A stretch of DNA of 59,538 nucleotides, filler included, from Porpidia crustulata (taxonomy: Eukaryota), in NCBI GenBank assembly GCA_964255105.1. It is 4 parts of 4 records of this genome, joined end to end, with 100 filler letters (N's around TTAATTAATTAA, not from the genome) between each part and the next. Parts side by side here need not be neighbours in the genome. Positions count along the whole stretch, not along the records: positions 14,942 to 29,754 come from CAXUWE010000357.1; 3 more parts are not named here. One strand, written 5' to 3'. Positions 4,301 through 44,762 of this stretch are shown here, piece by piece. The notes below the pieces were generated by a model. The model was not told the DNA's origin and did no database searches. It saw nothing but the letters and a program-made list of their open reading frames with translations. Position 1 is the stretch's first letter. Each line of letters opens with the position of its first letter. The translations under genes were made by a program, and so were the position numbers.

Positions 4301-7300
4301 GAATGCAAGCGCAGGTTCAATGTGGCGGATGCTGTCGTCCTCTAGATACGTCGGCCCTCTGAACGTGAAATAACCTGGATAGGTGCCGTCTCTATGCCCA
4401 CAGATGAATGTAATTCGTCTCACTTTACGATTGAGAAGCTCCTCTCTATATTCGCCAACGATCCCAGAGATCCTCTCCAGAATTTCATGATCGTCAAATG
4501 ATTCGGCGTCTCGAATGGCAACGTTGCAAACACCAGTGAGTTCTTCTTGCGGTTCTCGCTTAGGTGATGGCATCCTACGCTTCTGCGCAGACGTAAGCTC
4601 AGGCATCAACCCAGCTTGAGATTTCTTTCTGGAATCGGTGGCAGGAAATGTTTCCAATGCTCGCATAAGGTATTCTTCGGCCTCGTCCAGGTATTGAACA
4701 GGTACGATCACCCCCTTGCGCATAGGTTCGTCGGTACCTTTGCGAATCAAGTAGGACATATCGCTGATGGAACTAATTCGGTTAAAGGGGTTACCTTCTG
4801 CGGTGGGTGTGGCAGGTGTAGACGGATAAGAAGAAGTGATAGGCATGCCAAATTCTGCTTGGCCAACCTTACGAAGTAGGAAATCCCAGGATACAATATA
4901 GGGTGGTTCGTAATCATTGTGGTACTCAATACTTTTGAGCGAATACGCTCTGTAGGCACGGCGTATGTAAACCTCGAGGGCTGCTAATGATACCCACGGA
5001 TCCGTATGGCCGAAGAATTTCGGGAGAACGTCAAAGACTGTATACTTCGAGTCAACAACCTCCCGGAGCACGTCAAGATCCGGTTCTCGATGGTCCCATC
5101 CGGTCTCTCCGTATCTTGATTCCACCACGGATGATCTCAAGATATGTTCCATTTGCGCTTCTCGCTCCTCCAAAGACGGTAGTGCGCATTGTATCAAGAT
5201 TTCCCTAGCCTTGAGCGTGACTTTTGCAGTTTGCCTCGACTCCAGATCTGTGAGTTTTCGTAGCGAGTGTCTAAAATACTTCGCCACGTTTCCGGCATTT
5301 GGTCGATTAGGTTTGTACATCTCCAATATTGCAAGAATAAGATTGTTCTTGGCTCCAATCCTCGTATGCGAGAGCACTGTTTGAACGACTTTCGATATGT
5401 CATCTTTATTCTCATCTCGCAATTTCAGTATCACATCTTCATCTCTATTGTTTCGGCCTGAGAATAGCTTTTCGACATTGTGGTACTGGTCGATGAGGTC
5501 ACAGAATACCTGGAATTCGTGGACTTTAAGTCCTTCCGTGTACCGTTCCATGACCTCAGTAAGAGGAGCGAGGGTGCCTTTCAATGCGGGAGTATCCGCA
5601 GGACTCACACTTTCGTCCAGGAACCGTGACATAGTCTTCAGTAGTTGCTTTGCAGGAAACTCGGTCTTCCTGGTTCTTGATCTGTCAACAATCTGCGTAA
5701 ATGCTGTGTCGAGCTTGCTAGGCATTCTTGCATGTAGAGCCGAGAATTGAGCATTCCATTCGCCATAGGGTAATTCGGGATCCCTTAGTACCTCGATGAG
5801 TTCATTCAAGGTTGAAGCCATAATGACCTGATTGTCGAACCCCTGCAAAATGTTCTTCAATATGGTATACCGCAATGTGAACCGCTGCGGCGGCTTGTTC
5901 CCTACGATCTGTGGGGGGCCAAGGGGAGGGAGTTGTCCAGAGAACGGCTGGGCATGCTTGACTCTAGAAGGATCGTCCAAGGCAAGTATACCCAGGATAT
6001 CTCCGGCTTCTAAAGTAGCTCCTGGTTGCTTAATGAGTTGGACGATACCTTCTTCTTGGGTGATCAAAGGCATATACATCTTCATTACTTCAACTTCGGC
6101 AAATGGTTGACCAGCCTTGACATGCTCGCCGTTCTCGACTGTAAATTTGACAAGTTTTCCAGGGCTTGGAGTTCGTAACTGAGTCGGATCGTTTTCTTGT
6201 TCCAGTAGGCAAGTCTTACTGTCAACACTAATGCGAGTTGCGCCAACTTCCTCCTTCCAGTATATGTTATGGCTGCGTCCACTCAGTAGGATCAATAAGC
6301 CGCCATCCGCGAGTGCTCGGACACCAACCGCACACTTCGACCCGTTGATGAAGACATGGTAGCTATCCAAACTCGAGCGCGTAGCGGTGAACTTATACCT
6401 CACACCCTCGTAGATGAAATCGACAGGGAAAACGGTTTTGAGCACCTCTTTAGAAGGCACCTGCCCCTTTTCTAAACTTGCGCGATACTCGCTTATGCAA
6501 CCCTCGCTGGCAACGTGGGCTTTGGTCACGGCTCCACAAACCACGGCTAGCATAGGATCTGGCCTCTCCGCCGTCAATCTATTGGAGATTAATTCATCAA
6601 GCCATCCGGTTGTGATTGTATTGTTCTCGAATGCAGGTGTTTCAAGTAGTCTGATGAGGTACTCAACCGTTGTTCGGAAGTCACCACGAATGCTCAACTC
6701 TTTCAGGGCAACAACCATATGTTTCCGAGACGCCGAACGGTTCTCTCCATAAGCGAAGATGTGGCCAAATTGGCTGTCTGAGAAGCTGTGAATACCACCG
6801 GCTGTACCCACTGAGAAGTAGCCCCAGACGTTTGAGCTGCTTCGGAAATTCAATTCATGCATCATTCCACTGGAGGGCTTGAATCCTTCGCCGGGGTCCT
6901 CCGAGGTGATACGACATGCTGTGGTATGCCCCTTGGGTGTTGGTCGCCGTTGAGACGAGGTGCTGTCCATTTTGTCGAAGTTGAAGTCAATTTCGGATGA
7001 TGAGTATTGATCTGCCCCATATAATATCCGTATATCCTTTATACGATGGAGCGGGATACCCATGGCAATCTGAAGTTGTGCAGCGGGCAAATTGACGCCA
7101 CTAACCATTTCGGTCGTCGGATGCTCGACTTGTAGTCTAGGGTTCAACTCAAGGAAGTAGAACTTGTCATCCGCATGCGAGTAGAGATATTCCACTGTTC
7201 CGGCGGAGACATAACCAACAAGTCTCCCCAGCCGTACCGCAGCCTTTTCCATGGCCGCGAACGTTGCAGGCTTTGCAATTGTGACGGGAGCCTCTTCGAT

Positions 7301-8496: not shown

Positions 8497-9904
8497 TTCA
8501 GGTGTGTCTTGCTCGCTCTCGAGCAGTACTTCTTTGACTGCCAAGCCGAATGTACTGTGGTAGGTAATGGGGAAAATTCCTATCCTATGCGACTGTCATA
8601 CAGCAACCAGTGCTCACCGGTTTATTGGCTATTGCAGGTTGGAAAGTTGTCCTAGTGAGAAGGAGTCGCAGTCGCTTCGTGAGGAAGTGACGAAGAGCAG
8701 TAAAGTGTTGTAAGGGACAGAGGGAGGGAAGGTAGTTGCGGTGATATACGGGTAAAGTGATGAAGTCCAGGTAGGAGTGAAGTAGAAGAGCTTCAACGGA
8801 GCTCCCAAGCTGTTGAATAAGGCACTAGTCGGCAATGTCGGCGGCGTCGGGTACGGGGATCCTATTCCGTATCTGATTATCACTCGTTCACCGAAAACTG
8901 TCAGACTTGGGGGGATTGCATATGCAGGTCGGCTTGATACGGGTCACCTAATGATGAGATTGAGCGATTGAAACTCTGACGCTACACTAATGATGATTTT
9001 TGCAGATTTCTGGAAATACTCCATTGCATTCTACGGTCCTTGAAGAGCGATGAGTTTTCTTGTTGGGTCTTTCAGCTTTCATCATCCTCGGCCCTACGCT
9101 TGAATCATTGGGGGAGCAGGGGAGATACCCGGCGGGCTAAGGTGTCTAATCCCTGCCTGTTGGGCGGACCAAAGCGAGATTGTTGCGGGGTGAATTTCGG
9201 TTGATAAAGTCGGTCATCACCGACAGACGCCGGATTATATATCGTTCAAGTCAGACGTCGAGTGTCTTATGCTTCATATTTGATATGAGGCGCTTCTATC
9301 ATGTCACTACTCCATCTTCAACACCAGGCACAAACAACATCACACTATCGATTCTGCTGCAAGAATTGCATGTGGCGCCGGAAGTCATTGATAAGGTCTC
9401 GGCTTCTCTCGAAACGGAAAGCTCGAAGTAATCCTCCAATATCCTGAATCTTTCTGTTGTATGACAAGATCAAGATTTGGAAAAGCTGGGTTTCTTTGGC
9501 CGTCGGATATACGTTTCCCTCACCAACGTCATCACTGTGGAATGCCAATCGTCAATCTCCCATATTCTTGGGTAATGAAAGAAACATCGGCTGGCAGACA
9601 ACAGGTGTCCAGTGGTTTGCGAAGTCGTAGTCCGATACATTCCAGAAAGTAATGCGACGCTATTCTTGAGTAAAGACAATGTTAGTCCTCGTGGAACATT
9701 TGTACGTCGAGCATTGCGTGTTACTACCACGTACGTGTGAAGTTACACTGAATTGAACTGCCTATGAGGTTTTCTACGACGATGAATCCCAAGGCTCTCA
9801 TCGCTGCTCGTCTCAGTGAGAAATATTGCAAGTTTAAAGGTCCTCTGCGCAACACTACTTTGCTAGAAGTACCATTCACGAATTCTATATAATTCCCAAG
9901 TTTG

Positions 9905-11599
9905 TCACTCTTTGATATGGCTTGCTTGTTGACTGCTGCTGCTTCCATCGCCAGATTCCCCTGCATAAGCCTCCAAAACGTTCACGTTGGTTCGCCCTGT
10001 CACTGGCCCTGTGAAGCGTTTTCGACCAGTAGTGATCCAAGTAATTGCACTTATTAATCCAATGACACCAATCGCAGCACTCGTGTAATTCATGTTGTCC
10101 TTGTCCACGGGATTCAGTGTCGGGAAGTTGAATGTGATGGAGGTGAAAAGGAGGAAAATAAAGCCAGTAACATTTAGCACCACGCCCCATTTCCCCAGAG
10201 TATAAGGCCCCAGCAGGACACTGGCGTGACCAGTAAAGCGAGCCAGAATACGGGCCAGTAAAGGCATGGCGTATGAGAGATCTAGAGATATAGTAAGTGG
10301 CTGAAAGCGGCATGAAAGGCGAGGATTGTCTTACAGAAAGCTTCTGTTGCTATGGAGATAACGGTATTAAATCCTGTTACAGTTCCAAAGTAAATCGAAT
10401 TCAATGCCATCTGTACTCCGCAAGCGAGGAGTATCGCATACACGGGGATTTGCCGCTTGGATTCAACCTTCGAGAAAACTTTGGAAAAAGGTAGGCCATG
10501 GTCGCGTGCGAATGCATATAAGCTTCTGGATCCCTCGGCCATTAATGCGTTCGCGGAGACTAGGGCGATGATCACGATCATCGATGTCAGGAAAGAAGTA
10601 CCAACGACAGACTGCGTCGAGTCATAGAATATTTGAATCAAGGGGACCCCGGTTGAGGATTGGGCCGTGTTGGTGATGTCCCCGATGCAGAAGCAAATGG
10701 CGACAAGGAAGACGAAGCCTGTTACGGCGCCAATATAGACGGACATAATGATGGCTCGAGGTGCTTCCTTACTTGCATTCTTGAGCTCCTCAACCATGTG
10801 GGCAGGCGCATCATAGCAATTCATGCCAAAGGAGCTCTGAAGCAAACCAAGGATAGCAGCAAACCCTGTACCGAACCCTGTGAAATTTTGGAAGTCGTGG
10901 AAGACAAAGCTGGCTGGCTGCTTGTGATCGTTACAGGCAAGAATAACGACGATCACGACTACAAAAGACACAATATTCCAAAGCAATATTCCCCGAGAGA
11001 TCCTATCTAATAGATGTGGGCCGTATATATTGATGGCAGCGCAAAGGATGGCGATGAGATATGCGATCAGCACCGAGTGCCAGCGCTGGACTGTGTAATC
11101 GGGGAATGAGAGGTTTGCTAAGCCAAGGATGAAGTTTGCACTAATTTGATTATTGGTTGCTCCCATACTGAGTATTCCTATGGAAAAGTGTTAATTCAAC
11201 TTCAACAATATCTGTACGTGATGCCCTACCAGTAATCATGAACCATCCTGTGATCCACGACATTCCCCGTGCAATCTTTGGAGGGGCGAGCATTGCGACC
11301 CACGAATACTGCCCACCAGCCACTGGATAAGCAGAGCACATCTCTGCCATTGAGTATCCCACGGCAAGTGAAAAAATGCTGATGGCGATCCATGAGTAGA
11401 TCATCACTGGAGGACCTCCAGATTGGACACCAACGATCAAAACCCCTCCTAATGCCGTCCAACTTGTCACGATACTGAAGCTGAACCCAATCATACCCAA
11501 CAGGCCAAAAGAACGCTTCAATTCTTGCTGGTAGCCGAGATTTCCCAAAGCAGCCTCCTCCTGCACCTCATCATCGAAGGCCTTCTTTTCAAGCGACAT
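9905..11599 (-). CDS. APC-superfamily amino acid/choline/GABA permease (HNM1/UGA4-like)
   Basis: Exons 11599-11230, 11177-10335, 10281-9905; motifs LGYQQELKRSF, AEMCSAYPVAGGQY, YDAPAHMVEE, SRSLYAFARD and MNY; many TM segments. Confidence 0.9.
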
Positions 11600-13585: not shown

Positions 13586-14841
13586 ATGTCACCATCGGAA
13601 GAGCCCGCCTCCTCGCCCCAAATGTTTGAATCGGAAGACTCACTGTCATATTACAAAGCTCAATACGAACAACTTGAAGCTGAACTCGCAGACTTCCAAG
13701 CCTCAAGCAGAGAGCTTGAGGCAGAGCTAGAAAAGGATGTGGAGGCCTCAGAAAAAAGGGAACGGCAGCTACAAGCCAAGGTCGAGGCGTTGACTTATGA
13801 AGTTGAGGAATGGAAGGTCAGTCAGCAAACTTCCTTTCAGAATAAATGCGGCTCACTGGCCATGGATCGGTACACTATCCTAGATACTGACTGACTGAAC
13901 ACTGACATTTTACGTTAGACCAAGTACAAACAATCAAAGACAGAGGCCAACACGGCACAAACGACGCTTCAGAAAGAGATTACAAGTCTACGGGACGCAA
14001 ATAGGACCATTCAGATGAAGCTCCGTGATGTCGAGGTGGTAAATGATGATTTCGAACGCCAGGCAAGAAATACGACCTCGTCACTCGAGGATTTAGAATC
14101 CAAATACAACGTGGCTATCGAGCGGGGTGTGATGGCCGAGGAAGAGATAAGGGCCGGTGAACAAGAAAGAGAATCTCTTAGAATCGAGACGCAACGATTG
14201 CGGGATGAACTTAGCGATCTCAGAGTTGAGGCAGAGATCAGACAAGACAAACTTTGTCGTGCAGAAGCGGTGGCGCTGAGGCAGAACGCCAGAAAACCGC
14301 CCCCTCTACATCCTAGTGTGGTGCGACCCTCTTCGGCAATGTCAGGTCATTCCCCAACAACAAGCACATCTTCCCCGACTGTCGCTACTCCGCCAACAAA
14401 GTCGACATCTTCGACGGTCTCGGAAACGCCCACCCCGCCTTCACCGCCGACTTCAGATCATTCACTTCCTCCAGCATTGAACAACCCCGCAAATAAACTT
14501 CCCAAATCCAGGATATCCACCGGAGACTCAAATACCACCCCGCGGCCCCTGCCATATTCCACACAGACAATTCGCCACTCCCGCCGCCCTTCTACCCTCG
14601 CATCTAACGGTCGCTCGACCCCCCTCATACCCCGCCACAGCACCCTCCATCGTCCTGATCAACTCAACTCCGAGTCTATCTTTCCTTCCTCTGGTTCACT
14701 GCACCAAATCCGCGGCTTGATAGGCAAAATGCAAAAACTCGAACAACGAGTCAACTCCGCCAGATCCAAACTCCCCGCTCCCACCAGTACACCTCCCCGC
14801 GCCTCCCCGCGTACCAACTCCGCCTCGGATCAATCCTCCAT
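13586..14841 (+). CDS. nudE: Nuclear distribution protein NudE/RO-11 (dynein regulator), 3'-truncated by a gap
   Basis: Exons 13586-13816 and 13919-14841+; coiled coil [42 protein letters not shown]-terminal [19 protein letters not shown]. Confidence 0.92.
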
Positions 14842-14941
14842 NNNNNNNNNNNNNNNNNNNNNNNNNNNNNNNNNNNNNNNNNNNNTTAATTAATTAANNN
14901 NNNNNNNNNNNNNNNNNNNNNNNNNNNNNNNNNNNNNNNNN
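14842..14941. other. Assembly linker (44 N + TTAATTAATTAA + 44 N)
   Basis: Six-frame stop spacer flanked by Ns; identical to the two other linkers. Confidence 0.97.
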
Positions 14942-17900
14942 GGGTCGGTGGGGAGGCGGCGGCGGAGGGCAGCGACGATGGTCTGTTGTTTGGGGATTGT
15001 ATCGGCGCTGTCGATGGGATCAGTGAAGAAACTGTGTGAGTTGTGGTGATGCGGTCAACAGAGGAACGGGCGTACTGATGTGATCTCCAGCCGTCGACGA
15101 AACCGTCGCGGGTGAGTTCGCCCATCGTGGGTGCGGAGAGTTCTGTGAGGATGGCGAGAACGATGACTTCGTCAAGGCTGACTCCTAGGTCGCCTAGGTA
15201 TCGCATGGATCCTTCCACTCCAATAGTGTCCGGATCATTTGCTGCATTATCTGCGTCGTGTCTCAAGTCAACCTGAAGATCCAGCCCATGGAAACATCGC
15301 AAGATTACCTCTGTATTTATCGAACAATTTATTCAGTAACGTCGATCCTGATCCGCTTGATGGACCGTGGTTCACGCCTTGGAAAAACCTATCAATCGCG
15401 ACTCGGTCAGCTCGTGGTCTTATCAATCGCTGCTCTGCCATGTAAAGGAAAATGCTTTTGCCTTGAGCTACAGCTTCTCTATGAGCTTTATCGATGGCGT
15501 CTTTGGTAGAAACGCCCTTTCTTGGCCTTGGATTCTTTCGAGATATAGTACGCTTTCGCTCAGCGTGACGTTTGGAGGGATCCCTCCTTGACGCTAGTCC
15601 ACTTGTAAGGCTCGATGCCTGTCGAGACCTAGGCATAGAGGTACTGGTAGCATCCGAGATCTTAGTCATTTCCTTGTCCTTCGATTTGTAAAATTCAGAT
15701 ACGCGCTTGAGACTTGCGGATTCAGGAACCATTGATGTTGAGTACGGCTCAGGCGTCCGAGGCCGGTCAGTCGTAGAATGATCCATATAGCGCAGAGCCT
15801 CCCGATGTCCAGTAGCCTTAGCTGGTCTGATATATTGCAAATCATTCATCTCTATACACGGTAATAATTCATCTGGTGTAGTGTTTGACTCTATACTCGG
15901 TATAGGCTCCTCACTTGGATCATGCATCTGGAAGGTAATACTGTGCATGGCATTGGAGCTACGGAAATCCTCCGCCATCCTGTCTGGCCCCATCAGCGCA
16001 GGACGAACCCCATGTAACACGGGGCCGGATTCACTGGCTTTGGTTATTGAAGAGCTAGACAACGGCTCGCCGGAATGTGCTGTTGACAACTCTCCAAGGG
16101 GACTGGCTACCTTCTGAGTTGTATCAGAACTGCTGGGATTATCTAATTTTGGTTCTGCATTTCTCTGATTAAGTTGTAATTGAGCTACAATAAGCCGTCG
16201 CAGATGTTCAAGTACTTGCGCCTCCGAAAAATCCCTTGCGCCAGGTACTTCTGATTCACGGTGTATCTCTTGACGGGTTAGGTGAAGGGCGTTATCCAGA
16301 AGTTTATAAATTCGCACACCTTCAGCGGATTTGGCTTTACCCAAGCGCCTTAAGGTATCCATCATATCGTTGTCGGCCACCTCACTTAGAAGGCGGGACA
16401 TAAGAGCCTTTGGGGGCTTCAGCTGCATTGGGGACCTTGGCGGACTCGGTGACGTGAAGGGGGTCGATAGACTAAGTATACTTTCAGAGCTTGGCGAGCG
16501 TGGTGAACTAGATGGGCTTGAGAGCTTTGGTCGCGTGGGTGGCTTTGGTGGATTTAATCGTAGCTTGACAGGTTTGGGAGGAGGTGCTGATGAACCGAAA
16601 CTCCCAGGCGGTCCGGCTTCAGTGATATCACTTTCAGGGCCTACGAGACTGGAGTTCGACATGGAGATTGCGTCCATCAAATGCTGGGTCATTTCTGGCA
16701 CTCCTGAAATTTTTTGGTTGAATTGCTGTTTCTTCCGGCTTGAACTCTCATTGCATGCTGAAAATCGTTTCCTCTTCCTACATGCACACTGCAGTTGTTG
16801 GCAGCTTGAACAGCGGAAGCTGGATTCTTTGAGCACTTCCGCAGTGAAGCATTTGGAAATAAATTGTTCATGGTCTTCGCTATCGAAGGCAAACAAATCT
16901 GTGACTGTACTACGTTTTGTCAATTTACCACAACGACTGCTACTGGTAACATAGGGAACATATTGCTTCCGGACTGGAAAAGTGACATTGGTGCTCGCTT
17001 TCCGGAACTTCATGATCTTCGCTCTCAGTACTGTTTTAGAGTGGACGTGTTCTTGCGTATAATCTCGAGGTAGCCCAATTTTGAGCCCAAGCTTACGAGC
17101 TTCCTTGGTCGGCAAGTCCAAACCGAACATACTACAAGTCATTCCCTTTTCAGGAGATGTCAATAAAAGCCTGCTGTCGTACTTTTCATCTTCTGACATG
17201 AATCGCCTCCATGCGCTGTCGATCGCCTTCTGCTGATTCGACTCCCCTGCAGCTTGGGTTTTGGCAACAAACTTTTGCAGAGGCGTCACGGGATGTTTAC
17301 TTGATGATCTGAGGGTGTCCGTCACCTCAGTCATCTGCCTTAATGGCGTACAATATTTGGGCGGAGGCATGAGATTGATAGGATCTTCGCTTTTGTTGAG
17401 TGGCCATCCACTTTCATGGTTGGTTAAAACAATGGCCGATTGCAATTTTGGGGGCGCATTATAGATGCATTCTTTGTGAAAGATTTTATTACTATCATAT
17501 GCGGGATGACTGTTACTGATTTCTTTGAAGAGCGGAGAGGCGCGCGCTTCCTCTATGTGGGTGTCCAAGCTTGAGATCTGGGGCTTTCTCTGCTGTGGTG
17601 GAAACGTTTGTGGCTTTCCTGCAGTTGATATCACTTCAGTAGAACTACTCTCCAACAACAACCTAATATCAGGAGCTCGAGAATCCTGACGTGATACATC
17701 TAGAGTCAGCAGATCGCCTGCACCGATCGTCTCTGAGGCTACGGGTAAGCCTGGGCTGTGTACTTCCACCACTTCCTCGCCTTCGTTAAAGTCATTTGCA
17801 AAGATACGCCGATATGCTACTGCTTGTGTAAATTCATATTGCGATATGTGCGACTTCTGAGTACTCGTCGATTCGTGCTCGCCTATGGCAGTCTGTATCA

Positions 17901-19633
17901 TGGCGATTGCGTCTCTCCCTGTTGAGCCAACTTTACGCACATCTTCACATATTTCTGCCAACTCGCCACTGACGGCTTGCCTCGACCGGAGTTTATCCTC
18001 AAGCATATCGATCTGCTGAGAATTTGCTGGTTCTTCCTCAGCAGCTTCTTCCTCGGCAGCTTCTTCCTCGGCAGCTTCTTCCTCGGCAGCTTCTTCCCAT
18101 ATCTCTTCAGCAATTAAGGCAGCATCAAGCCTGTCACTACGCGAAATTGATTTATAAAGTGCGTCATCGTTGATAAGAAGACCTGCAAGCGCTTCTTTAA
18201 TGAGAGCTATGGCATTAGCATGGTGAAGATCACCCGAGGTATATAAATTGATGAGACCGGCGATCTCTTCAATAGTATCTTTCTCGTGCGATGTATGATG
18301 GTAAGCCTTCCATTCAGCGGCCTTTGCGGTTTCAATATGATGGGTGGGAAATTGAAGTGTCTCCAGATGCAGAATTAGATCAGAGTTGGATGTATTATCT
18401 TCGGCCAGGATATCACGATAGCGGTCAGGAGCGTCTTCAAGACTAATTGTGCCATCCTGAATAAGGTCATAAAGAGACCAGAGGCAATCATGCGTTTGCC
18501 GATCCCCGAATTCTACTCGCCTATGCTTAGGTCCTGATCCCCAACTGAAGCTAGTCCCTGGCATCTGCCTGCCGCAAGAACTTGCTGATATAGCCGTCGC
18601 TTGTCCTGATGATTGCTGTCCTCGGTAAAGTAGACTCAGGCCTTTCGGAAATTTATTACGGTATTTCTGGCTGACGTGATGCCTCAGATCTGGCTCTAGT
18701 CCGTAGACTGTCCTCCTATCTCGCCCTAGAGGTATGGTATATACCACTCTCATCTCACTTAGGTAACTAAGTGTTGGATCGATGTCAAACGCTGCCAAGG
18801 TCTTCTGAAGCGTGCTTTCTGGCATGAGCGGTCGTTGGAGAGCGAATCTGAACATCGACGGCAGTTTCCCTGATTTCATCCTGTCGTTCGTGTACGCTGC
18901 TTCCTTGCACCAGCTTGAAAAGAGGGCAGCAAGCCTATCCCGATGCAAAGATGGCGAGGGTCGCCGATTGGGTTTGAGGACCGGTGTCTCATTTTTTTCC
19001 GTGATCGAGGCCAAAGAATAGTTGAAAGGCATAGTATCTTCTATGTAAAGCAGCTGTCTTGAGATCTCTTCGTCGCTGAGCTTTGCACCTTGGGCTGCCT
19101 GGATCTGAGCAATTTGTCGCTCTACCGATGCTGCAGCCTCGCGCAGCCTCAATTCTCTGTCCTCTTTTGCCACATCATCTTCCATGTTTCTTGCGGCCAA
19201 GCTCTCAGTTTCCCTACACGTGAAGTGATTTGAGACGTCCTTGAAAATTCGAAAACCAGGAGTTGGGATCCAGAGCCAAGGGAAATCTTTTGGTGAGTTC
19301 AAATAACATTAAAGAATCATACAGTGTACTGATAGTGAATCCAAAAAACATGCTCCAAATGAAATATACATACGCATCTATTGCCTGTTCGACGTTCCAC
19401 CCATGGACTTTGAGTTGCTGTCAAATACATTTCGTTAGCCCCCTCGATCTTGCCGTCCACGCTCAGATAATGCAGGGGAGAGGCAGGAGCCAGTGGGAAG
19501 CAAGCTCGTAAGATCTACGTGATGTACAAGTCGATTGAAGACGACTTGCCTTGGCAGCAACACTGTCTTTGGCTTGTGTGAAGCCCACGAATTGGGCGAT
19601 TGCTGCCTTTTGTGACGCTGTGTACGAAGGCAT
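14942..19633 (-). CDS. DCN1: DCN1 (defective in cullin neddylation 1; UBA-like + PONY domain), canonical short isoform, 3'-truncated by a gap
   Basis: Exon 1 19633-19550 MPSYTASQKAAIAQFVGFTQAKDSVAAK; GC-AG intron; exon 2 19417-19374 QLKVHGWNVEQAID(A); 3985-nt intron; exon 3 15388-15309 FFQ...LNKLFDKYR; exon 4 15250-15076 DPDTIGVEGSMRYLGDLGVSLDEV...GELTRDGFVDGW; exon 5 from 15007 ADTIPKQ. All phases are compatible. Confidence 0.9.
15389..19213 (-). CDS. Large stop-free coding block (1275 codons) inside DCN1 intron 2; putative giant alternative exon or alternative N-terminus
   Basis: Part of ORF 19302-15268; runs in frame into DCN1 exon 3; first ATG at 19185; S/P/E/K-rich; no family recognised. 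Confidence 0.75.
18031..18097 (-). repeat. 15-bp coding tandem repeat, about 4.5 copies (EEEAA)
   Basis: Plus-strand unit TTCTTCCTCGGCAGC repeated; frame-preserving. Confidence 0.95.
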
Positions 19634-20076
19634 GCTGGCGACACAGTGCGTTGGACAGGAGAATTGGAGAAGAATGAAGTCTCCCTTGCGGAGCCTGTGA
19701 GTACAAAGATCAAATCGGTAGCTACTGCGCCATGGGAAGCGACACGAGTGTCAGTAGCTGGCTATCGTGAAGCTATTGTGGAGCTGTCGCAGAGTTGTCT
19801 TTGATTATTTGCGGGACGACGATGGAAAGTCATGGGAGTAGGTAGGGCTGACCGTTTCGGCGGATCAAATCACCGAAGAGGGCCGCCGCTGAAATCAACT
19901 GCTATGTACTTGATCGAAAACAAAATGGAGTTGACTCAACATATACGCCAGCGACTTTGATTATGATACACATGGTACGCCGGCTTCTGTCCCTGCCTCG
20001 CCATAACGTCGGACGGGGCAGTACTAAATACATAAAGGGGATACTCTACATCGCTTCAAGGCACAGTATCTTAAGG

Positions 20077-22510
20077 CTAATCCCCTGTTGGCATGTTTTC
20101 AACCTCCTCGCTCAGTGCTCTCCAATTGTCCGCCTGTAGCTCCGCATACTTGACTCGCTCTTGGCTCCAGTCCTGATGCAGCTTGCTGATATGATACTGG
20201 GATTGCTGAAAGTACATCAACTCATCACGGATGCACTCTTTGATAAAAACACCGCGTGCATGTTGATCCACTATCGACTGCTTGTCCTGCATTGTATTAG
20301 CATTGTGTGCCAAAACACATCCTGCACCCACTCACGGCTCTGACTGCTTCTTCTAGCTTTTCCTGTTCACCTGGCTTTGCAGCGGCGCCTTCTGGTCTTC
20401 TCATAAGCCCAGCTAGCTTATTCTCATTGCTCTCTATTCTTCGCTCCAATTGCGGAATATTATCTCTGGCATAGCGATCCCGGCGGTCGAACATGTCTCT
20501 TACCCCAACGAGGGTATCTCTTTGCTTCTTGAAGTCTTCCAGCACACCTTCATCCCATGCGCGGGCTTCGTCTTCAAGCAAACTTTGGCTCGTTGTCAAA
20601 TGCTTGGCTGTTGCGCCGATTCCACCGTTGAGCAAGGGAACTTCGTTCGTATCTGTGGCATATGTGCTCTGGGAACACTCAGTCAGAGCCATTAATGCCT
20701 GCGAAAACCTCAGATAATCTGCGGCAACCCCTTGATTTCGCTTTGCCAGACGCTCGAGCAAGCTACAAAGGTTGATGTAAGATTCCGCGGACTGAAGAAC
20801 ACCAGATCGGACCGTATTGAATGTCTCGGCAAGATTAGTTGGTAAGGAATCTTCGAGGCCTGGAGGAAGAAATTTGCCAGCGAATTCTTCTTGAACGGAT
20901 TTCGAAGCCTCCTTCCGCCACACTGCAAGTTCCTGATGCTGACGATAAGCTTTCACACTGGTGGCTAAGCACAGCACTGACTTACTGTGGGAACTGTAAG
21001 GAACATTGTTACGAGCTGTTCTTGGCTAAGGACAGGATGCCGCACGAGCGCATTTGCGAACCTTACGAGACCTCGCCTTCGCTTTTCGATGAATGTTGCA
21101 TCGGCCGATAAATGCCTTCCATTGACTAGGCACATTCAGATTATTAGCCCTAGTATCCTGCATGAGGCGGGCGATCTTACCAGCAACCCGCTTCGGTGGC
21201 AGTAGTGGTAGCTGTCTGAAAGGATATCGTTTATGTAGGCAGTCCAGGAGCCAGACAAAATCGCTGTACCGCCTTACAACGTTACTCCCTCTCCTTACAC
21301 TTTTGACTTCGTAATTATGGTGCTGAAACATGAACATTCCTTCCTTGTCGGGGAGTAGAACAACCGTAACTATCTCTTCTACACTACGATTTGTAGTGCC
21401 GCCACTGCCGAGAGACCTTGAGGTGCCACCTCCTGTATGATTTCCTCCTTGGCCGTCTAGATCAGATGCAAATCCCTCGGCTCCAGTTCCTGATTGCGCA
21501 CTGCCGGTAAAGCCACTTGTAGAGTTTCCATACGAGTCCCAGCCTCCGCCACTTCCATCTACAGGACGCCCACCAGAGGATTCATCACCTTCCAAGGTAG
21601 ACGCTGTTGATGTTGGCAAGTCTGAGTGTGTAGTAAAGGCACTCGTGGTCCTGGCGGAACCACCTACTCCATTGTTCATTGGCCTTACAGCCGTGACTCC
21701 CTTCGAAGGTGTTACTTCGTTTTCCACTGTATGTGTATGTCCTCTGTGCATGGCGGGACTGCCCCAAGGATCGCTGTCTAGATTCTCCAGTGAGTCTCTC
21801 CGTATGCGCCTGGATTTCGTTGGTGTAGCCGTAGAGGTGGCTCCCTCCGACGGCGGAGTGGCCTCTTCTGGGTAGTTCAAAGGTTCCTCCGGATTTTCTG
21901 AAGCCTTCCGCGTTCTTAGCTTTTTAATGAATGGTAATGATGGCTGAGGTAGGTCTAGCCATTGCAAATGTCAGTGGTAATATGGCAGCGGCCAGAAAAT
22001 TAGGAGTTGCTAACTTTTTCTCCTCTCGTCTACGCCGTCCAATGTCGCTTCTTCCTTCTGCTGAGATAGCCCTGCAAGAGCAAGCAAAACGTTGACTTGG
22101 CTACGATTGAGGCCACCAGTGGGCTCTTGCACGCCTGTCACTATATCAAGTATTCTATTTTGCTCTTTTTCGCTCAGCCCACTGCCTTCAAATATTTCTT
22201 TAGCACCCAACAGGCTGACCGATCCAGCTCCTTCTCTATATCCTGACTCCAATAATATGTCATACGCGTCAATGTAGCTTTCAGGTACATCAGACGCAGG
22301 CAGCAGCGACTTCACCAAGTCACCTTTACCAGATTTCTTGGGCGTTGGCATGCTCCATGGAGTCTCTCTGTTTCCGTTGTGATCATCGAACAGCGAGGAG
22401 TGGGAAGCTGCAGCAGGAGTCTGATTGTGGTGAAAGAGTGATTGCGGTTCCGGCGATGCTGCCGACTTCGACAGACTTGAATCCTCTGGAGAGCTACCAA
22501 ACAACGACAT
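20077..22510 (-). CDS. MVP1: Sorting nexin MVP1 (PX-BAR)
   Basis: Exons 22510-22015, 21954-21181, 21125-20986, 20932-20336, 20286-20077; starts MSLFG; PX motif VVRRYSDFVWLLDCLHKRYPFRQLPLLPPKR; BAR region. Confidence 0.92.
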
Positions 22511-29754: not shown

Positions 29755-29854
29755 NNNNNNNNNNNNNNNNNNNNNNNNNNNNNNNNNNNNNNNNNNNNTT
29801 AATTAATTAANNNNNNNNNNNNNNNNNNNNNNNNNNNNNNNNNNNNNNNNNNNN
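29755..29854. other. Assembly linker (N + TTAATTAATTAA + N)
   Basis: Same spacer as at 14842. Confidence 0.97.
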
Positions 29855-44662: not shown

Positions 44663-44762
44663 NNNNNNNNNNNNNNNNNNNNNNNNNNNNNNNNNNNNNN
44701 NNNNNNTTAATTAATTAANNNNNNNNNNNNNNNNNNNNNNNNNNNNNNNNNNNNNNNNNNNN
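44663..44762. other. Assembly linker (N + TTAATTAATTAA + N)
   Basis: Same spacer as at 14842. Confidence 0.97.

Follow-up and report, generated by a model that had tools for sequence, protein, structure and literature searches.

A DCN1 locus of lichen-forming fungi whose second intron probably doubles as coding sequence for a giant PONY-domain protein

Introduction

Cullin-RING ubiquitin ligases are switched on by DCN1, a conserved co-E3. According to the account of Keuss et al. (2016, PMC4886823), the DCN1-like proteins DCNL1-5 of animals join a constant PONY domain to differing N-terminal parts, which are thought to set localization or specificity; a UBA domain is present in DCNL1 and DCNL2, and DCNL3-5 have other N-termini (myristoylation site, NLS). 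The same account gives the cullin-binding DAD patch as D226, A253 and D259 of yeast Dcn1, and describes the roles of the N-termini, whose diversification took five genes in animals, as largely unclear (PMC4886823).

The DCN1 locus described here lies in the window, by which we mean the whole stretch of DNA analysed (59,538 nucleotides from Porpidia crustulata, filler included). It shares the UBA-like start and the PONY region of canonical fungal DCN1 (S. cerevisiae Dcn1; the Teloschistaceae proteins P0009, 278 aa, and P0005, 289 aa). Where canonical Teloschistaceae genes have a second intron of about 60-135 nt, however, that of the window measures 3,985 nt and is almost wholly a conserved in-frame ORF. 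The animal proteins are encoded by separate genes and their N-termini are short and mostly unstructured, whereas here both N-termini apparently come from one locus, and the alternative one spans about 1,270 aa, with predicted folded modules of its own and no known family.

Results

Structure of the DCN1 locus

The window is an artificial chain of contigs of about 14.8 kb, joined by N44-TTAATTAATTAA-N44 linkers. As a consequence, DCN1 runs off its own contig at 14942, with most of exon 5 absent, and the sequence to the left of 14842 is not a true neighbour of the gene (Table 1). Continuity over the locus had been put forward as a check in an earlier, sequence-only reading of this DNA, and it holds: Logan contigs from one DNA run containing the locus match 14962-20400 (as 14962-18070 and 18068-20400) with 0 differences, break at one place only, the in-frame 15-nt tandem repeat, and carry each of the two ORF/exon boundaries within a single contig. 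Misassembly as the source of the ORF is thereby ruled out.

Exon 1 shows 68% identity to residues 1-28 of Pyrenodesmia DCN1 (P0009; tblastn, E 1.6e-6), and exons 1 and 2 together match the UBA-like domain of this protein (PF14555/PF22566), including the stretch after residue 28. Intron 1 has the same position at locus L004 of a second lineage, there with a GT donor, and exon 2 is nearly identical in L004 and in a further locus, L014. Exon 2 ends ...GAT GC at 19374, followed by GTATGT, and exon 3 begins at 15388 (G TTT TTC CAA), which leaves an intron 2 of 3,985 nt; the other introns mapped here measure 58-132 nt, and a 4-kb intron is unusual for such a fungus. The positions that the sequence-only reading gave for the end of exon 2, the donor, the CTGAC branch point, the acceptor and exon 3 are all correct. 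Exon 4 is 77-81% identical to DCN1 proteins bearing PF03556; taken alone it matches 0 Pfam families, the contig ending before the stretch that PF03556 models. The first 22 codons of exon 5 are 68% identical to residues 1-22 of L004 exon 5.

Table 1. Features of the DCN1 locus in window coordinates (a slash marks a splice junction)
Feature	Position	Strand	Remarks
DCN1 exon 1	19550..19633	(-)	28 codons, start of UBA-like domain; non-canonical donor AAG/GCAAGT
Intron 1	19418..19549	(-)	132 nt, GC-AG type, CTAAC branch point
DCN1 exon 2	19374..19417	(-)	QLKVHGWNVEQAIDA; last 2 nt GC are a partial codon
Spacer from exon 2 to ORF ATG	19186..19373	(-)	188 nt; donor GTATGTATAT, TAG/G acceptor 19216-19213, conserved AGAGCTTGG 19205-19197; candidate internal promoter and 5'UTR, or short proximal intron
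Coding sequence specific to giant form	15389..19185	(-)	ATG 19185 to AG of distal acceptor; 1,265 2/3 codons
Tandem repeat, 15 nt x4.5, in frame	18031..18097	(-)	acidic run (EEAAE)n; absent from P0002 and P0003
Short-form 3' splice signals inside ORF	15389..15410	(-)	branch point CTGAC and acceptor AG
DCN1 exon 3	15309..15388	(-)	FFQ...LNKLFDKYR; common to both forms; donor G/GTAATC
Intron 3	15251..15308	(-)	58 nt; ORF-family conservation collapses here
DCN1 exon 4	15076..15250	(-)	first half of PONY region; 175 nt, as in L004
Intron 4	15008..15075	(-)	68 nt; from sequence reading and analogy with L004
Exon 5, first 22 codons	14942..15007	(-)	gene cut by contig end
Contig linker N44-TTAATTAATTAA-N44	14842..14941		artificial, not biology

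Most of the short form's intron 2 consists of the same bases that Table 1 assigns to the giant form. From stop to stop, the ORF occupies 15268..19308 on the minus strand (1,346 codons); it fills the gap between exons 2 and 3, runs in frame through exon 3 (...FFQ...LNKLFDKYR) and meets a stop 13 codons into intron 3. In the other five frames, open runs reach 214 codons at most, and the probability of 1,346 codons without a stop, given the base composition of the segment itself, is 2.8e-31, so that a chance open frame is rejected. The earlier claim of a stop-free, same-strand ORF reading through the distal branch point and acceptor into exon 3 was therefore accurate.

A conserved arm family in frame with DCN1 exon 3

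A phmmer search against 1.84 billion representatives returned 69 proteins at E<=1e-3, 18 of them reaching E<=1e-30; lengths are mostly 900-1,800 aa. These 69 representative clusters form a conserved family without a Pfam domain, the named members of which are all lichen-forming Lecanoromycetes. Exon 3 follows in frame at the C-terminal end in 41 of the 47 representatives of at least 850 aa (own HMM, iE<1e-3) and was found weakly or by eye in two more; the HMM did not find it in the other four, which may be cut. The long in-frame intronic ORF that the sequence-only reading proposed to look for in related fungi is thus widespread. In a three-way alignment, blocks of sequence are conserved, indels keep the frame, and conservation collapses immediately past KYRG, at the exon 3 donor. 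Most mechanically called ORFs end 2-40 codons past this point; P0045, P0035, P0066, P0090 and P0093 continue in frame into PONY, P0045 as a single ORF of 1,577 aa with PF03556 at 1436-1556. PF03556 is likewise present in P0042, P0026 and P0040, relatives with the same locus, and 7 of the 44 exon 4 matches are DCN1-like proteins of 1,271-1,838 aa. In Teloschistaceae gene models that retain it, intron 2 is just ~60-135 nt long, and by this comparison the giant arm seems to be dispensable in some lineages.

The same layout recurs in a second, independent lineage with DNA (loci L002-L011; 39-40% identity), with UBA exons, a 189-nt spacer, an ATG, the ORF, exon 3 and PONY. At L004, exon 1 (9547-9630) and exon 2 (9762-9805) precede the 189-nt spacer and an ATG at 9995; the ORF runs to an AG at 13676-13677, and exons 3-5 extend to a stop at 14479. 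L004 exon 5 matches solved structures of DCN1 and DCNL1-4 (E 1e-13), and opposite the human DCNL1/2 stretches kDtW, eeGAWP and liDdF it has D, A and D, which by our own counting of the human numbering we take to be the DAD-patch positions. In the window, this stretch lies past the contig end.

Besides helical modules and long, disordered linkers rich in Ser and Pro, the arm contains a small conserved module, a Cys cluster and basic KRKR runs. With a threshold of E<=0.05, 0 Pfam families were detected in the arms of 26 members, except for a single DUF4315 match that misses its own cut-off. Foldseek against the PDB gave a best E of 0.58, the best VIA-align Z scores (5.8 and 6.9) are within noise for helical models, and a search of the ESM Atlas gave no usable match.

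One locus, probably two products

We consider it probable, from the comparative sequence evidence, that one locus yields two products: a short DCN1 and a giant form that starts at its own ATG and in which the arm replaces the UBA domain. The canonical UBA-PONY protein (~270 aa) would arise by splicing from the donor at 19373 to the distal AG at 15390-15389, which removes 3,985 nt. For the giant form (~1,490 aa), transcription would start within the 188 nt after exon 2 and create an alternative first exon, with the result that the giant arm (~1,266 aa) would take the place of the UBA domain, be read through the distal acceptor into exon 3 and then be spliced to the PONY exons. By analogy with animal DCN1-like proteins, cullin neddylation would still be promoted through the PONY half, and the arm would set its place or its partners. 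That a single DCN1 locus encodes the standard protein and a lineage-specific PONY form of roughly 1,500 aa, the core of the sequence-only reading, is thus strongly supported by comparative data (the 41 of 47 representatives, the second lineage and the splice signals kept as codons).

Where the giant form would start

Two entry points had been suggested for the giant form, a proximal TAG/G acceptor at 19216-19213 and an ATG at 19185-19183. Both are present as described, and the acceptor would give a 160-nt intron and an insert of 3,825 nt (1,275 codons) in the correct phase. The frame of exon 2 meets a stop at 19216-19214, so that plain intron retention would be unable to join the UBA domain to the ORF.

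An alternative that we regard as unlikely, yet the strongest of those considered, is that the giant form is a UBA-arm-PONY protein of ~1,550 aa, made from the DCN1 promoter through an alternative 3' splice site just upstream of ATG 19185, with the short form alongside. The candidate acceptors are TAG/G at 19213 and a conserved GAG/C at 19202/19201. About eight codons upstream of the ATG are conserved too ([EK]-S-L, AGAGCTTGG) and contain a phase-compatible AG; such AGs precede the ATG in all three lineages with DNA, one of them in a 10-nt block that is 100% conserved (AAGAG/CTTGG). Ahead of the ATG, the ORF frame stays open for 41 codons in the window, 18 in L004 and 43 in L013, and the spacing from exon 2 to the ATG is constant (188 nt in the window, 189 in L004, 186 in L014), which favours a proximal acceptor. 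However, neither L004 nor L014 has an equivalent of the TAG/G at 19213 in this position, and the conserved AG, being a GAG, is a poor acceptor with no CTRAY branch point at a usable distance. The NCBI model P0040 does unite UBA and PONY Pfam domains in one protein of 1,838 aa, but this is an ab initio prediction that continues across the exon 2 donor unspliced.

Translation from exon 1, moreover, would not require an aligned Met, yet the Met is aligned in the window, P0002, P0003, P0048, P0049 and L013/L014, although a Met heading mechanically called ORFs is partly present by construction. In each of the three lineages with DNA, the ATG is flanked by A at -3 and G at +4. Since the Met is aligned in close relatives and has this context, and since the 19213 acceptor stands at a non-conserved place, the internal start fits better than that acceptor, and ATG 19185 is most likely where the giant form begins. 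As in an alternative first exon, the giant form has a conserved start codon of its own and shares the downstream exons in frame. Conservation within the spacer is confined to the donor block and the AGAGCTTGG block; the latter, together with a conserved TATAT after the donor, may hint at a separate transcription start.

Splice signals retained as codons

In the window, the branch point CTGAC (15410-15406) is read as codons for Ala-Asp, and the acceptor AG (15390-15389) opens an AGG Arg codon. Immediately ahead of [FY][FY]Q, 40 of the 51 members with a recognizable exon 3 have Arg and 11 have Ser; these are the two amino acids with AGN codons, and Lys, a conservative swap for Arg, never occurs there. 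An [ASTP][ND] pair begins 7-9 residues upstream in 50 of the 51 (background 0.255), and in the three ORF-bearing lineages with DNA the codons are GCT-GAC/GAT/AAT (CTRAY) and AGG/AGA. A stop before exon 3 was found in 0 of the 51. Both UBA exons, with their splice sites, remain intact in the window and in group A (0 and 1 segregating sites, respectively). We interpret the last codons of the ORF as the footprint of a live 3' splice site; an A/T-N/D (CTRAY) pair in 50 of the 51 members and a final Arg or Ser (AGN) in all 51 imply that the short UBA-PONY form is probably kept as well.

This pattern bears on a second alternative, that these fungi make the giant protein only, the distal acceptor being disused and the short DCN1 absent. 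The atypical length of the 4-kb intron would fit, as would the metagenomes, in which ordinary DCN1 (L018, L019) occurs in 2 assemblies only and looks like another organism's gene. Yet an Arg/Ser-only codon in 51/51 members, an xCT-RAY pair in 50/51 and AGR codons in the DNA are hard to explain by protein function alone, and no part of the locus is better conserved than the UBA exons, for which only proximal joining would then leave a use. We therefore judge a giant-only locus to be very improbable.

Decay and selection

The whole locus also exists as a decayed copy (L012-L017), in which the ORF has undergone at least three frame changes and PONY exons 4 and 5 contain stops, the state expected without selection. 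In five haplotypes of a relative, 1-2% diverged, the 3.7-kb ORF has one 3-nt indel and no stop. The sequence-only reading expected dN/dS below 1, and this was borne out in part: pN/pS is 0.47-0.66 in the seven haplotype pairs with pS of at least 0.02 (Fisher p = 0.005 and 0.008 in the two of these pairs tested), but 1.15-1.73 in the three closest pairs, which have few changes. Segregating substitutions have a density of 3.5% in the ORF, 3.5-6.1% in introns and flanks and 0-1.4% in exons 1, 4 and 5, and their skew over codon positions in the ORF is slight (46/35/49). We read the ORF as coding and under selection, with short-term constraint on the giant arm that is weak.

This weakness and the many mechanically called ORFs that stop soon after KYRG would suit a separate nested gene ending in exon 3 or intron 3 without PONY, a non-functional relic or an assembly artefact, but we give these very little credence: a transcript with exon 3 and its conserved donor would by default be spliced to exon 4, a poly(A) site in a 58-nt intron being unlikely; a stop of its own before the host's next exon is absent from the window and from 51/51 members; several members run in frame into PONY; the decayed copy shows how fast the frame breaks; and the Logan contigs and the same layout at other loci contradict an artefact.

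Discussion

The two-product arrangement that we favour resembles isoforms with an alternative first exon driven by an intronic promoter, in having a 5'-extended downstream exon, an ATG of its own and all 3' exons shared. Unlike usual alternative first exons, its 3.8-kb coding extension must keep the other isoform's branch point and acceptor as codons. In Lecanoromycetes (lichen-type) DCN1, the second intron would thus double as coding sequence, with two outputs.

More tentatively, and with slightly more doubt than confidence, we extend this reading to the whole of the Lecanoromycetes. About 4 kb would there be both intron, for canonical DCN1, and exon, for the 1,000-1,800-aa N-terminal arm of a giant PONY protein; Ala/Thr-Asn/Asp and Arg/Ser codons would have preserved the branch point and acceptor since before the Ostropomycetidae/Lecanoromycetidae split, and the arm would be a new, probably nuclear, promoter-switched scaffold that retargets cullin neddylation. 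A whole fungal class would then seem to solve within one locus the N-terminal diversification of DCN1, by fusing to the PONY half a giant arm from a family that Pfam and the PDB do not know. The locus also offers what appears to be a clean natural case of dual sequence use, in which splice signals survive as codons, so that protein alignments alone suffice to reveal them.

The claim that such a form had not been described in fungi stands for the literature searched, where we found no discussion of giant Xylographa or Heterodermia DCN1 models, but not for databases, since giant ab initio models are already in NCBI, unremarked. The 'Scaffold-type E3 ligase' models of Xylographa spp. (P0039-P0042, 1,679-1,838 aa) and a hypothetical protein of Heterodermia aff. 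obscurata (P0026, 1,356 aa) have the same arm family, exon 3 and PONY. These ab initio models disagree at the 5' end and in intron 3, and none of them models the short form; the tools listed in the Xylographa genome paper are funannotate, Augustus, snap, GeneMark-ES and GlimmerHMM, and 'RNA-seq' has 0 occurrences in that paper. Annotations of lichen genomes are inconsistent at the DCN1 locus, with giant, truncated or scrambled models, so that DCN1 orthology, gene counts and intron statistics drawn from them are unreliable.

A long reading frame fills intron 2 of DCN1

DCN1 lies on the minus strand at 14942-19633, and reading this strand directly bore out all coordinates of the sequence-only reading, which had described a long in-frame ORF inside intron 2 that runs into exon 3. 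A single frame is free of stops over 15268..19308 (1,346 codons), passes through the distal acceptor and enters exon 3 in the DCN1 frame. Given the base composition of the segment itself, the probability of encountering no stop over this length is 2.8e-31, and in none of the remaining five frames does an open run exceed 214 codons. In the minus-strand reading, the next DCN1-like sequence after exon 2 begins only at 15388.

Features of the DCN1 locus in the window and in the metagenome locus L004
Sequence	Feature	Position	Strand	Remarks
Window	Exon 1	19633-19550	minus	28 codons
Window	Intron 1	donor 19549-19544	minus	132 nt, GC-AG type, AAG|GCAAGT
Window	Exon 2	19417-19374	minus	ends GAT GC, then GTATGT
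Window	Short-form branch point CTGAC	15410-15406	minus	upstream of acceptor AG 15390-15389
Window	Exon 3	15388-15309	minus	starts G TTT TTC CAA; donor G|GTAATC
Window	Exon 4	15250-15076	minus	
Window	Exon 5	starts 15007, cut at 14942	minus	
Window	Artificial linkers	14842-14941, 29755-29854, 44663-44762		N44-TTAATTAATTAA-N44, stops in all six frames
L004	Exon 1	9547-9630		
L004	Exon 2	9762-9805		...EQAIDA, GC|GTACGT
L004	ORF ATG	9995		after 189-nt spacer
L004	ORF end	13676-13678		GAC AG|G
L004	Exon 3	ends 13757		then 59-nt intron, exon 4, 58-nt intron
L004	Exon 5	ends at stop, 14479		

Since the window is a chain of ~14.8-kb contigs joined by linkers, DCN1 simply runs off its own contig. The rest of exon 5 was searched for across the window and is absent; a candidate for the missing 3' end at 6587-6667 was rejected as a weak match (E 0.19, 37% identity). 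Genes flanking a linker are not true neighbours, and the plus-strand coiled-coil gene ending near 14841 does not really converge on DCN1. Regarding intron 1, use of a nearby GT as donor would break the frame, and the orthologous donor in L004, a locus on a metagenome contig, is GTGAGG as opposed to the GC donor of the window.

The possibility of misassembly was examined with Logan contigs of a DNA run, the sole public run found for 14951-19950. These match 14962-18070 and 18068-20400 with 0 differences, and both ORF/exon boundaries fall within single contigs; the sole contig break coincides with a 15-nt in-frame tandem repeat at 18031-18097. The ORF is thus not an assembly artefact. The repeat, present in 4.5 copies, encodes (EEAAE)n and is missing from the related proteins P0002 and P0003, which indicates a recent in-frame expansion; as the Logan contigs end within it, the number of copies is uncertain.

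A protein family with DCN1 exon 3 at its C-terminus

Two relatives of the ORF product came from a word-indexed search: P0002, at 47% identity, and P0003, at 38%. Both likewise read on into ...R-F-[FY]-Q...LNKLFDKYRG. Alignment of the three proteins shows conserved blocks and in-frame indels, with similarity collapsing directly after KYRG, the position of the exon 3 donor. An exhaustive phmmer search using ORF residues 1-1200 extended the family to 69 representatives at E<=1e-3 (49 at <=1e-10 and 18 at <=1e-30), mostly 900-1,800 aa in length.

Using an HMM of the exon 3 segment built from 43 sequences (threshold iE<1e-3), we found exon 3 as the C-terminal end of 41 of the 47 representatives of at least 850 aa, and it is also at the C-terminus of P0081 (3e-3) and P0112 (by eye). 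The four that do not contain it (P0059, P0078, P0083 and P0088) may be truncated. Most of the mechanically called family ORFs end 2-40 codons inside intron 3, and continuation in frame into PONY sequence was seen in P0035, P0045, P0066, P0090 and P0093, with P0045 forming one ORF of 1,577 aa that carries PF03556 at 1436-1556.

Splice signals of the short form are held as codons

Splicing of exon 2, which ends in GC, to exon 3 would require the last ORF codon to begin with the acceptor AG, leaving Arg (AGR) and Ser (AGY) as the sole options. A branch point of the form CTRAY would also be expected at a fixed short distance upstream. We looked for this footprint in 61 family members of at least 600 aa, 51 of which have a recognisable exon 3. 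Exon 3 is preceded by Arg in 40 of the 51 and by Ser in the other 11, although these two account for 18% of the residues of the family. An [ASTP][ND] pair starts 7-9 residues upstream in 50 of the 51, versus 25.5% of random 11-residue windows. At the DNA level, the codons read GCT GAC...AGG in the window, and GCT GAT...AGG and GCT AAT...AGA in two groups of metagenome loci (A and B, respectively); in the short form, GC|N encodes Ala whatever the third base. This codon footprint, together with the intact and highly conserved UBA exons, speaks for continued production of the short UBA-PONY mRNA in each of these lineages.

An origin by target-site duplication or from a mobile element was suggested by the likeness of ...QAIDA and ...VAIDR at the two ends of the intron in the window, and was rejected because the five residues preceding the Arg differ in every other lineage.

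Intact and decayed copies in metagenomes

Scanning of JGI metagenome contigs identified 19 loci. Group A (L002, L004-L007 and L009-L011, with partial copies L001, L003 and L008) encodes the protein represented by P0048/P0113, which is 39-40% identical to the window ORF. The long in-frame intronic ORF that the sequence-only reading proposed to look for in related fungi is present here, in exactly the layout of the window. The stop-to-stop frame spans 1,354-1,355 codons in seven group A loci, and L005 is cut by the contig end. Exon 5 of L004 matches the solved structures of DCNL1/2 and yeast Dcn1 (E 1e-13 to 4e-11), and opposite kDtW, eeGAWP and liDdF in the alignment it has D, A and D.

Group B (L012-L017) carries the entire locus in decayed form. 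Its ORF requires at least three frame changes, the first open stretch covers only 137 or 203 codons, exon 1 was searched for in these loci and not found, and PONY exons 4 and 5 hold stops. Group B is a natural control, showing that the frame, together with PONY, breaks quickly without selection. The decayed copy (for example, L014:8616-13700) sits beside the intact locus in six metagenome assemblies and is either a paralogue in the same genome or the gene of a second fungus; in L013, the region preceding the ORF has been replaced.

The two remaining loci, L018 (9311-10813) and L019 (2154-3656), are ordinary DCN1 genes with an intron 2 of ~440 nt. Over its last ~105 codons, this intron stays open in the frame of exon 3 and ends ...R-F-F-Q. 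This stretch may represent what is left of the giant ORF, or its forerunner.

Where a giant form would start

Plain retention of intron 2 is ruled out as a route to the predicted giant form, as the frame of exon 2 reaches a TAG at 19216-19214. We somewhat favour an internal start at the ATG at 19185. The corresponding Met is aligned in the window, P0002, P0003, P0048, P0049 and L013/L014, and all three lineages with DNA share A at -3 and G at +4 around the ATG. From exon 2 to the ATG the spacer measures 188, 189 and 186 nt in these lineages. It has two conserved parts: GTAYGTATAT, made up of the donor and a TATA-like run, and AAGAGCTTGG, which precedes the ATG by 13-21 nt.

Alternatively, splicing to a proximal acceptor would yield a giant form that contains the UBA. 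The conserved block before the ATG does include an AG in a compatible phase, the frame of the ORF extends open beyond the ATG on its upstream side, and the residues [EK]-S-L are common to the lineages; however, this AG occurs as GAG and lacks a usable branch point, and the TAG|G at 19216-19213 that the sequence-only reading put forward as acceptor is not kept in place in L004 or L014, being one of several phase-compatible AGs. We regard a UBA-containing giant form as rather unlikely, and an internal start as the better account.

The block AGAGCTTGG is identical in the three lineages (window 19205-19197; L004 ~9973-9981; L014 ~8825-8833), whose proteins are merely 33-40% identical, and lies 13-21 nt upstream of the ATG of the predicted giant form; a conserved TATAT follows the intron 2 donor. 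Either could act in the core promoter or the 5'UTR, or as an acceptor.

Distribution among lichen-forming fungi

A search among longer proteins with 52 aa of exon 4 gave 44 matches, and the named organisms among them are all lichen-forming Lecanoromycetes. Seven of the 44 are giant: one from Heterodermia aff. obscurata (1,356 aa), four from Xylographa species (1,679-1,838 aa, named 'Scaffold-type E3 ligase') and two further proteins (1,271 and 1,577 aa). As Xylographa belongs to the Ostropomycetidae and Heterodermia to the Lecanoromycetidae, the giant arrangement likely predates the split of these subclasses. The Teloschistales (Letrouitia, Pyrenodesmia, Xanthoria, Flavoplaca and others) have short UBA+PONY proteins of 260-295 aa, some of whose gene models retain an intron 2 of merely ~60-135 nt, and the arrangement was likely lost, or never gained, in Teloschistaceae.

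The Xylographa models were generated by funannotate with Augustus, snap, GeneMark-ES and GlimmerHMM, ab initio predictors, and the text of the genome paper does not contain the term 'RNA-seq' (PMC9098629); on this text, they are predictions, not transcripts. The models also conflict with one another, both in how they begin at the 5' end and in their treatment of intron 3.

In the Teloschistaceae models P0010, P0016, P0031 and P0033, the short intron 2 is retained in frame or the start falls inside it. Its translated 3' end reads ...MKRK-[AT]-[ND]-x6-R-[FY]F, with branch point and AG in the same register as in the giant family, which hints at loss of the giant ORF by deletion. The Peltigerales models P0014 (Lobaria immixta) and P0028 (Pseudocyphellaria aurata) are scrambled or without UBA, with exon 1 of P0014 joined to unrelated residues. 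This suggests that the DCN1 locus is unusual in Peltigerales too and its annotation unreliable.

Literature searches returned nothing on DCN1 in lichens, on neddylation in Lecanoromycetes or on DcnA and neddylation in Aspergillus nidulans, and 'Scaffold-type E3 ligase' led, among the matches listed, to UFMylation or E2 inhibitors and not to this locus. The view that such a gene had not been described in fungi thus holds for the literature searched, though giant DCN1 models sit in NCBI, and no discussion of them was found in that literature. The kind of gene is already known, as DCN1-like genes with a variant N-terminus and, in general, alternative first exons. What appears to be new, judged from sequence, is the predicted dual use of a single locus, the size and family of the giant-specific arm, its class-wide conservation, and the holding of splice signals as codons.

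Nature of the arm and selection on it

The arm, which extends from the ATG at 19185 to the distal acceptor, gave no Pfam family in the 26 members searched, and its structure models gave no Foldseek match in the PDB at E<=1e-3 and no usable look-alike in the ESM Atlas. The best VIA-align wide scores (Z 5.8 and 6.9) were to helical hairpins or bundles only, within the noise of helical models. The lack of matches does not show that the fold is new.

AlphaFold models of arm residues 1-470 (pLDDT 72.9, pTM 0.36) show several confident helical modules with low-confidence linkers between them, and in residues 590-1010 (pLDDT 63.2) disorder prevails, apart from a single small confident module at ~ORF residues 677-730 and helices at the end. 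An alignment of 47 sequences identifies the conserved features: an LP-x-MFRFAL-x-RPLMPE block; a three-helix and a four-helix module; an acidic run; the module SPE-x-G-x-T-x-x-WGL-x-x-PT-x-x-AR...GLP-x-D...KRKAS; a C-x2-C-x4-C-x-C cluster followed by KRKR; and a final helix that closes with the splice-signal stretch R-x-x-R-x-x-A-N/D. Judged from its basic runs, the predicted giant protein may be nuclear. In animal DCNLs, as described in PMC4886823, the N-termini govern localisation and PONY binds cullins via a DAD patch. By analogy, the arm would most likely place neddylation activity at particular sites or partners.

Polymorphism was analysed among five group A haplotypes differing by 1-2%. 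In the 3,683 nt of the ORF, 130 substitutions segregate (3.5%), distributed 46, 35 and 49 over the codon positions; exons 1 and 4 have none, exon 5 has 1.4%, introns 3.5-6.1% and flanks 4-5%. The sole indel in the ORF is 3 nt long, versus 26 gap columns in the 300 nt upstream. As to the dN/dS below 1 that the sequence-only reading proposed to look for, pN/pS is 0.47-0.66 in the seven pairs with pS of at least 0.02 (Fisher p = 0.005 and 0.008 in the two tested), and 1.15-1.73 in the three closest pairs, where few changes underlie the ratio. Group A polymorphism therefore indicates that the arm is kept as an open, partly constrained frame, most of which evolves fast, in keeping with the confident modules and low-confidence linkers of the structure models.
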